Below, piece by piece: positions 2,442 through 20,759 of a DNA stretch of 20,759 nucleotides (position 1 is its first letter; the number at the start of each line of letters is the position of its first letter). Origin of the DNA: Abditibacteriaceae bacterium (GTDB taxonomy: Bacteria; Armatimonadota; Abditibacteriia; Abditibacteriales; Abditibacteriaceae); contig JANPJS010000317.1 of the NCBI GenBank assembly GCA_031425655.1, forward strand, positions 1-20,759. Direction: 5' to 3'. The notes below the pieces were generated by a model. The model worked only from the letters and a program-made list of their open reading frames with translations, made no database searches and was not told where the DNA came from. The position numbers and the translations under genes were made by a program.

Positions 2442-3445
<1,004 letters not shown>

Positions 3446-3717: not shown

Positions 3718-3987
3718 TTACTCTTCGTCTTTGGGACGTGGTAGGCGGCGTTCAAAAAGGAGTCTTTCATTTTCCAAGCGCAATAGTAGGTTTTCTCTAT
3801 CCCGCGCTTCGGTGTCCTTAGTATGCTGCATTTCGTCCCGCAAGCGCTGAAGTTCAAATATAACCTGCTGCATGGTGGTCGTCAGCTTCCGAACTTCCCC
3901 TTGTAATGCTTCGATATCCTTCTGATTCTTGTTTGTCTGCTGACCGAAAGCAAAAACCCACTTCGCCAAATCGTAGAATTTCTTCAT
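3718..3987 (-). CDS. Small hypothetical coiled-coil protein (89 aa)
   Basis: Heptad-like pattern (IEALQGEVRKL...LQRLRDEM); starts 3 nt after the stop of the upstream 59-aa ORF. Confidence 0.7.
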   Translation of the reverse strand: MKKFYDLAKWVFAFGQQTNKNQKDIEALQGEVRKLTTTMQQVIFELQRLRDEMQHTKDTEARDRENLLLRLENERLLFERRLPRPKDEE

Positions 3988-3990
3988 ACG

Positions 3991-4170
3991 TTACGCTACC
4001 TTCAATTCAGCTAATATGACTTCCGTCTCAGCGCGCATTTGCTCGATGCGAATCTGCCTTTCATCCATCTCTGTTTGCATCCGTTCCATTTCTGACAGAA
4101 AGCGGTCAATAGCCGCCTCGTATTCCGCATCCACGTTGGGAAGAGCCTCAAATGTGGTGGTTTTCTTCAT
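3991..4170 (-). CDS. Small acidic helical protein (59 aa; absent from ORF track)
   Basis: MKKTTTFEALPNVDAEYEAAIDRFLSEMERMQTEMDERQIRIEQMRAETEVILAELKVA; GGAGG SD 7 nt before ATG; own promoter. Confidence 0.75.
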   Translation of the reverse strand: MKKTTTFEALPNVDAEYEAAIDRFLSEMERMQTEMDERQIRIEQMRAETEVILAELKVA

Positions 4171-18839: not shown

Positions 18840-19584
18840 CACGGCGAACAATGACACGGCAGGCCGGCGCGTGGTAATGCGCCCGGCGTGGCATCACCTT
18901 CTCTTTTTGCACTGGGAAACTCAAGCCGAAGCACTGCAACAACTGCTTCCCGCCGGTCTGGAAGTTGATCTCTTCGACGGTCGAGCCTACGTCGGACTGG
19001 TGCCATTTACCATGCGACATCTGCGTCCTCGCGGCCTGCCCCATTTGCCTCATCTGAGCCACGGCCACGAGAATTTTCACGAAGTTAATGTGCGAACGTA
19101 TGTGCGGCATCCGCATTACGGGCCGGGTGTCTGGTTTTTCAGTCTCGATGCAGCCAGCAGCCTCGCGGTTTGCGCTGCGCGTCTCTGGTATAAGCTGCCG
19201 TATTTTTACGCTTCAATGAGCCTTAACTCGCGCCGCACGGCTCAAAGCACCATTTATGATTATCATTCGCAGCGCTGTTGGCCGCGTCCCGTGCCCGCCG
19301 CGTGCAATATTTCTTACGCGCCCACAGGCACACCGACGCAGGCCACGCCCGGCACGCTGGAATATTTTCTGGTCGAACGCTACCTGCTTTATTCTTATTC
19401 GCGCGGGCATTTATTCGCCGGTCGCGTGCGCCATAAACCCTATCCATTGCAAGAAGCGAATGTTTTCTCCTTCGAGGAAAACCTAATTCGAGCTTCCAAT
19501 ATCCAGCGGCCTGATTCTATGCCGCTGGCGCATTATGCCGGCAGCGTGCAGGTGGATATTTTCGCGCCGAAAAATATTTCATAA
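18829..19584 (+). CDS. DUF2071 / YqjF family protein
   Basis: W..LLFLHW, DGRAYVGLVPF.M, F.EVNVRTYV, GVWFFSLDA, FLVERY motifs; ATG 18829 overlaps the DCC gene end. Confidence 0.9.
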   Translation: MNNDTANNDTAGRRVVMRPAWHHLLFLHWETQAEALQQLLPAGLEVDLFDGRAYVGLVPFTMRHLRPRGLPHLPHLSHGHENFHEVNVRTYVRHPHYGPGVWFFSLDAASSLAVCAARLWYKLPYFYASMSLNSRRTAQSTIYDYHSQRCWPRPVPAACNISYAPTGTPTQATPGTLEYFLVERYLLYSYSRGHLFAGRVRHKPYPLQEANVFSFEENLIRASNIQRPDSMPLAHYAGSVQVDIFAPKNIS

Positions 19585-19648
19585 ATTGCCTCGTCTTCAA
19601 TTGAAATATACGATAGAAAAACCATTAAACGCCCCTCCAATAACTCCA

Positions 19649-19720
19649 CAGCGGGGGCGGGGATCGAACCCGCGCTCTTCCGATTAACAATCGGACGCCT
19701 TACCACTTGGCCACCCCGCT
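19649..19720 (-). tRNA. tRNA-Asn(GTT)
   Basis: AGCGGGG/CCCCGCT acceptor, TCCGA-TTGTTAA-TCGGA anticodon arm, GGTTCGATCC T-arm, G73; CCA not encoded. Confidence 0.93.
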
Positions 19721-19745
19721 AAAACGTAAAAATACTCGGTAGAAA

Positions 19746-19817
19746 TGGGCCGCAAAGGAGTCGAACCTTTGCCTGTCAGATTAAAAGTCTGCGATGCTGC
19801 CTTTACACCAGCGGCCC
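19746..19817 (-). tRNA. tRNA-Lys(TTT)
   Basis: GGGCCGC/GCGGCCC acceptor, GCAGA-CTTTTAA-TCTGA anticodon arm, AAAGG-TTCGACT-CCTTT T-arm, A73; CCA not encoded. Confidence 0.9.
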
Positions 19818-19818
19818 G

Positions 19819-19893
19819 ATAGAATTGTGAATTAAGAATATAGAATTTAGAAAATAGATTTCTAAATTCTTCATTCAAAATTCTCAATTCTAT
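19819..19893. repeat. Inverted array of NNGAATT heptamers forming an AT-rich hairpin in the Ser-Lys spacer
   Basis: TAGAATT GTGAATT AAGAATA TAGAATT TAGAAA, then the reverse units; 19842-19853 / 19859-19870 pair perfectly, as do 19819-19827 / 19885-19893. Confidence 0.8.
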
Positions 19894-19896
19894 TCA

Positions 19897-19979
19897 CGGA
19901 AGGGACAGGATTCGAACCTGCATAGCCAGAGGCTTATCTGTTTTCAAGACAGACGGGGTGCCAATTCCCCAACCTTTCC
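19897..19979 (-). tRNA. tRNA-Ser(TGA)
   Basis: GGAAAGG/CCCTTCC acceptor (one A-C mismatch), TCTGT-CTTGAAA-ACAGA anticodon arm, variable arm AGCC-TCT-GGCT, G73; CCA not encoded. Confidence 0.9.
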
Positions 19980-19991
19980 TCAATATAAGCC

Positions 19992-20062
19992 CTGCCCGGC
20001 CTGGACTCGAACCAGGATTAACGGAGTCAAAGTCCGCCGTCCTACCATTAGACGACCGGGCA
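19992..20062 (-). tRNA. tRNA-Gln(TTG)
   Basis: TGCCCGG/CCGGGCA acceptor (U1-A72), GCGGA-CTTTGAC-TCCGT anticodon arm, CCTGG-TTCGAGT-CCAGG T-arm; CCA not encoded. Confidence 0.94.
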
Positions 20063-20073
20063 AAAATCACCGA

Positions 20074-20145
20074 CGGGGACAGCGGGAATCGAACCCGCTC
20101 CGACAGGCCGACAACCTGCTGTGCTGACCGTTACACCATGCCCCC
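20074..20145 (-). tRNA. tRNA-Asp(GTC)
   Basis: GGGGGCA/TGTCCCC acceptor, GCAGG-TTGTCGG-CCTGT anticodon arm, GCGGG-TTCGATT-CCCGC T-arm, G73; CCA not encoded. Confidence 0.9.
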
Positions 20146-20174
20146 AAATTTTCACAAGCCTCGATATCGTGCAA

Positions 20175-20268
20175 TATAGCGTTTCTCAGAAAAGATGCAC
20201 CATTGCGAAGCGAATCTTAAACGTCCCGCTCGCACTTTGATGTTGCATTCAATCTGAGAAACGCTATA
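20175..20268. mobile_element. 94-bp MITE-like hairpin element with TA ends (IS630-like)
   Basis: Perfect 16-bp terminal inverted repeat TATAGCGTTTCTCAGA (20175-20190 / 20253-20268), extending imperfectly inwards. Confidence 0.55.
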
Positions 20269-20311
20269 AAAACAAAAAAGCCCGCTGCCGGAATATCCTC
20301 GGCAGCGGGCT
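20268..20311 (-). terminator. Intrinsic terminator (attenuator) between the leader ORF and the tRNA array
   Basis: 12-bp stem AGCCCGCTGCCG/CGGCAGCGGGCT (20279-20290 / 20300-20311), running on the minus strand into TTTTTTGTTTTT. Confidence 0.88.
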
Positions 20312-20339
20312 GGAGCGCACGACACGTCACGACAAAAAT

Positions 20340-20510
20340 CTATTTTCGTCGTTTGCGATGAGCCTCAGCCTGCTGAGCCAAGAATATATTCTGCGAATTG
20401 GTTTGATTCTTTTTATCCGATGCCGAACGCGAGACGCCGCCAAGCGACACGGATAGAATCGCGCGTTGCTGACAATCGGAATTTGAAAAGTGGTTCAGAA
20501 CGGTAAACAT
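20340..20510 (-). CDS. Putative 56-aa attenuator leader peptide of the tRNA array (absent from ORF track)
   Basis: MFTVLNHFSNSDCQQRAILSVSLGGVSRSASDKKNQTNSQNIFLAQQAEAHRKRRK*; lies between promoter and terminator; 25/56 codons are Asp/Gln/Ser/Lys/Asn; no clear SD. Confidence 0.6.
   Translation of the reverse strand: MFTVLNHFSNSDCQQRAILSVSLGGVSRSASDKKNQTNSQNIFLAQQAEAHRKRRK
20366..20387 (-). promoter_or_regulatory. Antiterminator segment
   Basis: AUAUUCUUGGC(UC)AGCAGGCUG can pair with CAGCCCGCUGCCGAGGAUAU (20312-20293; terminator 5' arm plus loop) with 2 G-U pairs, 1 mismatch and a 2-nt bulge. Confidence 0.65.
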
Positions 20511-20563
20511 GGTCGTCGAAAAAAATCAAAATTTGTGTCGCATATTTCAGCAGACAAGCGAAT

Positions 20564-20592
20564 AATATATTTCTTTATTTATAGTCTGTCAA
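20564..20592 (-). promoter_or_regulatory. Near-consensus sigma70 promoter of the leader/tRNA operon
   Basis: TTGACA (20592-20587)-N17-TATATT (20569-20564). Confidence 0.8.
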
Positions 20593-20759
20593 GAGTTAAG
20601 CCGAAAATATTATAAATTGGTGTTGGTTCACAGGTAGTTGTAGGCGCAGTGTAGGTTATATTCGTGCAAGAACAGGCGCAAGCAGGTTTCGTGCATGACA
20701 TCACACTTGGAAAAGGAGAGCGTTTTACGAGTAAAGCGCCCTAATCGTTGGCGTAGAGT

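Follow-up and report, generated by a model that had tools for sequence, protein, structure and literature searches.

The stretch analyzed here, a 20,759-nucleotide window of contig JANPJS010000317.1 from the assembly of an Abditibacteriaceae bacterium (GCA_031425655.1; 5.98 Mb, 327 contigs, 56.7% G+C), carries a unit in which a promoter, a short leader open reading frame (ORF), an intrinsic terminator and five tRNA genes follow one another, all on the minus strand. The sigma-70-type promoter, TTGACA-17-TATATT (20564..20592), matches the consensus at 11 of 12 positions and is preceded by an A/T-rich stretch (20597-20620); transcription is expected to start near 20557. It is the best of four promoter-like sites in 19400-20759, a region in which shuffled sequences gave 1.8 +/- 1.2, and its CTCTTGAC(A/G)-17-TAnnnT context with the A/T-rich upstream stretch is seen again in loci related to the window. 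The leader ORF (20340..20510; MFTVLNHFSNSDCQQRAILSVSLGGVSRSASDKKNQTNSQNIFLAQQAEAHRKRRK) starts with ATG and comprises 56 codons followed by TAG. The terminator (20268..20312) begins 29 nucleotides past this stop codon and consists of an 11-bp G+C-rich stem (20310-20300 with 20290-20280) and a U-tract, TTTTTTGTTTTT, located directly after the hairpin at 20279-20268. The hairpin itself, GCCCGCUGCCG / CGGCAGCGGGC at 20310-20280, folds with -25.2 kcal/mol. A simple terminator scanner run on the region missed this terminator; homologous terminators are present in related loci.

The tRNA genes downstream are tRNA-Asp (GTC) at 20072..20146, tRNA-Gln (TTG) at 19991..20063, tRNA-Ser (TGA) at 19897..19979, tRNA-Lys (TTT) at 19746..19817 and, as the last gene of the array, tRNA-Asn (GTT) at 19648..19721. 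All five were called by both ARAGORN and Rfam, with Rfam tRNA scores of 50-72 bits. The genome encodes 67 tRNAs, and each of the five species has a copy elsewhere, to which the array gene is only 54-69% identical (Asp 54%, to two core copies; Gln 65%; Ser 64%; Lys 69%; Asn 60%); the tRNA-Asp of the array also has an anticodon loop unlike that of its core counterpart. Because these divergent core copies exist elsewhere in the genome, the array is, by sequence comparison, a supernumerary and foreign-looking tRNA set, and the extra-copy status of all five genes fits a back-up role. A preliminary description of this stretch had proposed the promoter, the 56-codon leader, the terminator and the five tRNAs, and each was found where it had been placed.

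The codon content of the leader resembles that of the array behind it. The main candidate sensor patch, codons 31-41 (SDKKNQTNSQN; 20388..20420), contains 10 codons of 11 that are read by the five array tRNAs, and a second patch occupies codons 9-15 (SNSDCQQ; 20466..20486); both had been singled out previously and were recovered as described. Over the whole leader, the array tRNAs can decode 23 of 55 codons, compared to 13.5 +/- 2.5 in dinucleotide shuffles (p = 2e-4), and the 10-of-11 patch has p = 1e-4. The enrichment is thus not explained by base composition, which had been named as a possible cause. The two other forward frames hold 7 and 12 decodable codons. Against the long-ORF background of the genome, 0.19 for the 10-codon set, the binomial p is 8e-5, and at the amino-acid level 25 of 55 leader residues match the array (D, Q, S, K, N; p = 1.4e-4 versus the proteome). 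The eight Ser codons are TCG (five), TCC (two) and TCA (one); AGY makes up 42% of the genome's Ser codons, so its absence from all eight is mildly unusual.

Units of this architecture form a family in Abditibacteriaceae. Altogether, 24 loci were collected in which a TTGAC-N17-TAnnnT promoter with an A/T-rich upstream stretch is followed by an ATG-initiated ORF of 32-88 codons, a gap of 17-35 nucleotides and an intrinsic terminator, with tRNA genes behind it in most cases. The window's genome holds only two such units, the second being on contig C61, where a TTGACA-17-TAAAAT promoter precedes a 58-codon, L/F/W/H/R-rich ORF (MLSTTFINFQFGEPTGQMLLSSLTSLLAAGCIYKWLHRRPMLSTRKVRVTRDYPPHRR) and a terminator 81% identical to that of the window; 26 nucleotides past this terminator follow tRNAs His, Arg(tcg), Leu(taa), Trp, Leu(caa), Leu(tag) and Phe. 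BLAST searches with the C61 leader yielded 13 loci in 10 of 27 family genomes, and further loci were obtained from metagenomes with a degenerate terminator pattern (at least 84 matches in 80 loci, of which seven had tRNAs downstream among the matches listed). An additional locus, L194, was found through unbiased inspection of the tRNA clusters of genome G084; its terminator is unrelated to the others, and its leader, MFALALNLNQQNLQLQLQGSVRRSGFRAGEKR, stands before a Gln-Asn-Leu-Leu array. Arrays in relatives reach 15 contiguous tRNAs. In 8 of 17 loci the end of the hairpin lies at most 35 nucleotides from the first tRNA (15 nucleotides in L194), a gap that leaves no room for a separate promoter, and the tRNAs of such loci would therefore be made only via read-through.

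Clusters without the unit architecture provided a control. In 17 such tRNA clusters, seven in G084 and ten from a survey of four other genomes (among the matches listed), none had a leader and terminator, and the control clusters inspected by reading had a promoter directly upstream. An exact terminator pattern returned 22 stretches across genome contigs; the two from Abditibacteriaceae had arrays, and the other 20 were rejected as unrelated terminators. The same exact pattern matched five genomes among 401 of the phylum, two of them by chance and devoid of tRNAs. A further match, L072 on a metagenome contig (terminator at oriented position 3000), shows a Leu-rich leader (..LLRNLLLAL..) and terminator before a leuA-like gene of an unrelated organism; it was set aside as an ordinary Leu leader peptide, matched solely through terminator resemblance.

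The preliminary description had proposed testing whether leader codon content follows array content, and this was examined across homologous arrays. The leader was taken as the longest ATG frame ending at most 90 nucleotides upstream of the terminator (in L059 the start was set at the ATG downstream of its promoter), and the array as a same-strand run of ARAGORN tRNA calls with gaps of less than 450 nucleotides. Omitted were L061 and L051 (homologues of L052), L137 (of L059), L103 (identical to L058), L066 (a homologue of L055, its tRNAs bearing insertions), L042, L097 and L102 (arrays cut by the contig end), and the tRNA-less L054, L057, L062 and L136. The statistic was a sum over loci and amino acids, in which the deviation of a leader frequency from its mean over all leaders was weighted by the presence of the corresponding tRNA in the array; arrays were permuted among leaders, and the p values so obtained overstate independence, as the loci share descent.

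Leader composition followed array content. An exact test of eight loci placed 7 of 40,320 permutations at or above the observed value, and 17 of 18 testable amino acids in this set were commoner in the leaders whose array has their tRNA. With 11 loci, including the counter-example L075, the count was 16 of 200,000; with 12 mutually divergent pairs, L194 amongst them, it was 2 of 300,000, and the same 12 minus the window gave 23 of 300,000. The signal was confined to the reading frame of the ORF itself (z = 4.4), with the five other frames giving z = -1.35 to 0.33. The test suggested in the preliminary description therefore had a positive outcome.

The clearest single cases, for which p values were computed against proteome frequencies, illustrate this co-variation. 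In L058, 47 of 59 leader residues match an array of R, C, H, Q, S, L, W and M (p = 1e-13). In L059 and L137 a lone tRNA-Asn stands behind leaders with nine Asn each (p = 2e-4), a number that both retain though several positions differ between them; genome G033 carries a separate core tRNA-Asn that has no leader. The Gln-Asn-Leu-Leu array of L194 lies behind "LALNLNQQNLQLQLQ", with 14 of 31 residues matching and 14 of the 15 residues at positions 4-18 being L, N or Q (p = 3e-4). Additionally, 33 of 61 residues match in L052 (array F, G, H, L, M, R, W; p = 1.6e-3).

The same type of leader is also found before genes other than tRNA genes. In L062 the leader and terminator are followed by a 131-nucleotide tRNA-like element and a Ro60 gene (TROVE, E = 1e-48; vWA_Ro60, E = 2e-66), and in L136 the leader type precedes an RNA ligase (PF09414, E = 2e-27). 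The third case, L057 (G237:C452, 988-6008, minus strand), is a five-gene operon behind a leader/terminator unit, in which one gene encodes a HEPN domain and the others have no family assignment. Its 554-amino-acid protein gave no match in Pfam, NCBIfam, PADLOC or PDB sequence searches; it was placed near TROVE/vWA clusters by Atlas feature search only, which is a lead and not a finding. The presence of these leaders before Ro60, RNA ligase and the L057 genes suggests a small translation and RNA-damage regulon. The tRNA-like element of L062, located at 3968-4098 on the plus strand, is a candidate Y-RNA-like partner of Ro60.

RNA folding pointed to an alternative structure by which translation of the leader could be read out. 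The input was the RNA present before the 3' arm of the terminator is made, namely the final 22 codons of the ORF together with the gap and the 5' arm. In 22 of 23 loci it folded into one long predicted hairpin, in which a stretch of the ORF 7-22 codons ahead of the stop is paired with at least 8 of the 14 5'-arm nucleotides, and the same 22 loci have the stop codon inside the enclosed part of this predicted antiterminator. Shuffled sequences gave this geometry in 7.8 of 23 (median z = -2.1). The sole failure was L054, an orphan tRNA-less unit with a degenerate terminator. On the ORF side, the pairing strand conforms to the consensus UYUCGRCAG, which copies the 3' arm of the terminator and occurs in differing reading frames.

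In the window, UCUUGGCUCAGCAGGCUGA (codons 43-49; 20365..20383) is the strand predicted to form the 5' side of the antiterminator, by pairing with the terminator's 5' arm and the bases immediately preceding that arm. The duplex has -22.6 kcal/mol, compared to -16.2 +/- 2.8 when the ORF is codon-shuffled, a fraction of 0.027 of the shuffles lying at or below the window's value, and local folding pairs 12 of the arm's 14 nucleotides with the 20365-20383 strand (z = -3.5). A predicted apical hairpin, ACGACGAAAA / UUUUUGUCGU (20329..20352), holds the stop codon UAG in its loop. The main sensor patch lies directly upstream of the predicted antiterminator strand, and over the loci the residues that match the array reach their highest enrichment from codon 13 up to this strand (1.47 relative to the proteome, versus 1.28 and 1.24 elsewhere). 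Only in L194 do the sensor codons also have a predicted classical 1:2 pairing, with the segment that follows them. In the minimum-energy leader fold of the window, a run of the 5' untranslated region, UUGAUUUUUUUC (20518-20529), is predicted to pair with AAAAAGAAUCAA of the main sensor patch (20403-20417); this pairing, close to the leader start codon, might couple sensing to re-initiation.

These observations make it likely that the unit gates its supernumerary tRNA array by leader-peptide attenuation, a ribosome-mediated control of transcription. The strong promoter would drive transcription of the 56-codon leader ORF. A leading ribosome translating smoothly to the stop codon would melt the long antiterminator hairpin, whose base is predicted to consist of codons 43-49 and the 5' arm of the terminator and whose tip would carry the stop codon; the terminator would then form and transcription would end ahead of the tRNA genes. 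If the ribosome lagged at the Ser, Asp, Lys, Asn and Gln codons just upstream, the antiterminator would persist and RNA polymerase would read through into tRNA-Asp, Gln, Ser, Lys and Asn. It follows from this mechanism that the leader would serve as a decoding-speed test for the amino acids of the downstream tRNAs, and the array as a demand-driven spare set. Possible triggers are tRNA cleavage, poor charging or general translation stress.

The attenuator interpretation, already put forward in the preliminary description, has the support of architecture and comparative genomics, through the anatomy of the unit, its family in Abditibacteriaceae, the frame-specific co-variation and the predicted alternative RNA structures; from these we infer translation of the leader, the act of switching from stalling to read-through, and what causes the stalling. 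A broader picture, which we offer tentatively and give slightly less than an even chance, is that Abditibacteriaceae run a small regulon through such leaders as bar-coded decoding-speed sensors, each sampling chosen amino acids. A lag, for example because toxins or phage have cleaved tRNAs or because charging has failed, would then call up the matching divergent spare tRNAs or, in sister loci, Ro60 with a tRNA-like RNA, or RNA ligase. On this picture, the translation apparatus would measure and replenish its own tRNA supply through a feedback loop that needs no protein regulator. The Ro60 and RNA-ligase genes behind the same leader type would tie spare tRNAs to RNA repair, which fits arrays that answer tRNA-targeting toxins or translation stress.

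Several results weigh against the attenuator interpretation. An equilibrium model with a ribosome mask, giving the terminator probability per stall position, favoured the terminator at every position and was uninformative, with the probability of the 5' arm being in any pairing saturating at about 1. Over the loci, the best duplex energy between ORF and 5' arm did not differ significantly from codon-shuffled ORFs (mean z = -0.43). Because equilibrium folds favour the terminator and duplex energies are no better than those of shuffles, the argument for the switch is a kinetic one. Shine-Dalgarno-like sequences ahead of the leaders are weak or distant. The open ATG frame is kept in 24 of 24 loci. 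When the 26 other genomes of the family were searched by BLAST, the window leader had no ortholog by sequence, and the window unit is placed in the family only by its architecture. Furthermore, a 98-nucleotide repeat separates the window terminator from tRNA-Asp and might hold a promoter, the best promoter match in this gap being 7 of 12.

The co-variation also has its weak points. It weakened, to 1249 of 200,000 permutations at or above the observed value, when the window and the WLHRR group were left out, and L075 is a lone tRNA-Phe behind a leader with merely two Phe. About half of the loci are not enriched singly: L053, L055, L056 and L069 (10-12 amino acids, low power), L060, L133, L051 and L075. 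The use of TCN for all eight Ser codons of the window leader, which had been taken to fit tRNA-Ser(TGA), stands as an observation but does not generalise, as the synonymous choice for Ser, Leu and Arg in seven pooled loci did not follow the array anticodons (94 observed versus 99.1 expected, z = -1.1, in a test of low power that applied the window genome's codon usage to all loci). The match between leader and array thus holds at the amino-acid level and not at the anticodon level.

The missing anticodon match and the loci without enrichment of their own both speak for a general translation-stress attenuator, in which any ribosome lag, whether caused by antibiotics, damaged ribosomes or global starvation, leads to read-through, and in which the leader-array match is partly chance and shared descent. 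The leaders before Ro60 (L062), RNA ligase (L136) and the L057 operon point in the same direction, and the trn array of Anabaena is, according to the accessible text of PMC8421152, induced by any translation inhibitor. We regard this alternative as unlikely, since the co-variation is frame-specific and chance poorly explains nine-Asn leaders before a lone tRNA-Asn, the L194 leader before Gln-Asn-Leu-Leu, or 47 matches of 59 in L058. It is also compatible with amino-acid-specific attenuation, in that a general platform may have been tuned where tRNAs follow.

The repeat in the window likewise lends something to a second alternative, namely that the ORF encodes an ordinary small protein and has a terminator of its own, and that constitutive expression of the downstream tRNAs comes from leaky read-through or a different promoter; the L058 and L053 gaps also hold sigma-70-like matches of 9 of 12. 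The peptide of the WLHRR subgroup, a hydrophobic stretch followed by a basic tail, looks conserved, with nucleotide differences by codon position of, e.g., 12/10/24, and may have a role of its own; between L054 and L051, 17 codon differences are synonymous and 16 non-synonymous, L054 being an orphan. Elsewhere the leader peptides are poorly conserved (19% mean column identity over 24 sequences, Met1 being the sole invariant residue), and no third-position excess was observed in the pairs L059/L137 and L055/L066. Gaps of 15-35 nucleotides to the first tRNA are too short for a promoter, and a small-protein gene predicts neither the co-variation in composition nor the antiterminator geometry, which renders this explanation distinctly improbable. 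The orphan L054 (G266:C8, 7316-7554, minus strand) carries a WLHRR-type leader and a degenerate terminator with no tRNA downstream.

The good folding of the 414-nucleotide leader region compared to shuffles (z = -6.1), together with conservation of the UYUCGRCAG motif across differing reading frames, could alternatively be understood if the leader were an untranslated RNA sensor, such as a T-box-like element reading tRNAs or a protein-binding leader, with an incidental open frame. This seems very improbable indeed. With E values of up to 1 allowed, a search of 19300-20759 against Rfam returned only tRNA and four sub-threshold chance matches, and at gathering score the 108 matches in 19 related loci were all tRNA; neither search found a T-box. 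An ATG frame of 32-88 codons is open in 24 of 24 loci and always ends 17-35 nucleotides before the terminator, whereas the other two forward frames have stops in most leaders, and co-variation is seen in the open frame only. Ribosome-mediated attenuation remains our preferred interpretation.

The surroundings of the unit include mobile DNA. An IS1-family transposase fragment, the C-terminal 43 codons of a gene within which the contig ends (20631..20759, minus strand), neighbours the unit and lies outside it; the Pfam match to DDE_Tnp_IS1 (E = 1.7e-4, 22.4 bits) is under the 24.1-bit cut-off because the gene is a fragment. Since it lies directly upstream of the promoter, the tRNA unit adjoins mobile DNA. 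The 98-nucleotide hairpin repeat (20175..20272, minus strand) resembles a miniature inverted-repeat transposable element (MITE). It has a 16-bp terminal stem (TATAGCGTTTCTCAGA...), and four more 100%-identical copies are found on contigs C207, C189, C289 and C327, so that by its sequence it looks like a recently active MITE. Related loci lack it and have terminator-to-tRNA gaps of 21 to 195 nucleotides; on this sequence comparison, the repeat is foreign to the ancestral unit. Beyond tRNA-Asn, a convergent DUF2071 gene ends at 19584.

Within the array, an A/T-rich hairpin spacer separates tRNA-Ser from tRNA-Lys (19818..19896, minus strand) and contains two weak promoter-like matches, with 9 of 12 positions at 19866-19837. 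Inverted-repeat spacers of this A/T-rich kind (GAATTGAGAATTTAGAATG... type) occur between array tRNAs on three contigs, that of the window, C61 and C249, and could be processing sites, repeats or weak promoters. Some array tRNA genes bear insertions of about 12-60 nucleotides: L061 (G000:C61) at 602-688, L066 at 2511-2978, L133 at 3178-3311 and G000:C249 at 290-363. Some of these genes were missed by ARAGORN and were still scored as tRNA by Rfam; the insertions may be introns, small inserts or signs of decaying genes. Two further oddities were recorded, namely an ARAGORN tRNA call with anticodon TTA, labelled 'Stop', at G000:C70:1011-1089 (minus strand), and a four-gene array Cys / unclassified (four-base anticodon call ccgg) / Ala / Trp at G000:C217:2292-2635 (minus strand), which has a promoter directly upstream and no leader.

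Ribosome-mediated attenuation is well established for amino-acid operons, with trpL, hisL, leuL, thrL and pheL as leaders and with multivalent ilv and thr leaders. The units described here share with these attenuators (PMC1183508, to the extent of its accessible text) a promoter, a short leader rich in regulatory codons, alternative antiterminator and terminator hairpins, which are predicted in the present case, and a read-out of ribosome speed, which is proposed for them. They differ in their targets, which are tRNA genes, or RNA-repair genes in relatives, instead of biosynthetic enzymes or charging functions. The leaders are also longer and sample more amino acids, with 32-88 codons and up to about eight amino acids, compared to 14-32 codons and one to three amino acids in the operons. 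Additionally, the antiterminator is one long predicted hairpin with the stop codon at its tip, in place of the classical 1:2 pairing predicted for L194 only.

Bacteria, plasmids and phages widely carry supernumerary tRNA arrays. To our knowledge, Anabaena is the only case in which the regulation of such arrays is known, and there it involves a protein repressor. The array of the window resembles the silent trn L-array of Anabaena sp. PCC 7120 in being supernumerary; the latter is described, in the accessible portions of PMC8421152 and PMC10272220, as horizontally spread, off by default and thought to serve under translational stress. There is also a parallel in RNA repair, as rtcB is co-regulated with the Anabaena array (PMC8421152, accessible text) and Ro60 and RNA ligase share the leader type here. 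In mycobacteria, tRNA array units have been called a putative antidefence system (PMC12803027, accessible text). The Anabaena array is controlled by the repressor TrcR, which binds repeats over the -10 box, and the accessible text of PMC8421152 and PMC10272220 contains no occurrence of attenuat-, leader or terminator. The TrcR site TGTAGTAT, as given in the accessible text of PMC10272220, is absent from the window promoter (20600-20550), no search for a trcR homologue having been made in the genome. Unlike control by TrcR, the mechanism proposed here is predicted to work at a stage later than initiation and to be amino-acid-specific.

In T-box riboswitches and in the pheST (pheM) attenuator, transcription read-through into translation-apparatus genes depends on the state of the tRNA pool. 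A T-box binds uncharged tRNA directly and independently of translation, and no T-box model matched here; pheM controls a synthetase gene, whereas the present units precede tRNA genes. Antibiotic-response attenuators such as the erm leaders, bmrCD, vmlR, msrD and yxjB (PMC4191407, PMC6851288 and 10.1101/2021.11.29.470318, in their accessible portions) likewise combine a leader ORF, a terminator, stall-driven read-through, which is proposed here, and targets that protect translation. As far as the accessible portions of these sources go, their leaders stall via drug-dependent arrest peptides, whereas the leaders described here have no conserved arrest motif and a codon content that tracks the downstream genes.

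The preliminary description knew of no described equivalent, and a full-text literature search, with subscription journals and pre-1990 work outside its scope, likewise returned no description of leader-peptide attenuation of tRNA genes. The E. coli tRNA-Phe genes pheU and pheV may have an attenuator-like leader, on which the search, within the same scope, gave no pertinent result. The units thus probably represent leader-peptide attenuation with a new class of target, tRNA genes. If so, the composition of a leader would name the amino acids whose decoding the array rescues, making the use of an array predictable, and the leaders would be compact, amino-acid-specific sensors of decoding speed that could be used as reporters. 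Compared to the amino-acid operons, the attenuation paradigm would then extend from sensing charged tRNA for the sake of amino-acid supply to direct homeostasis of the tRNA pool.

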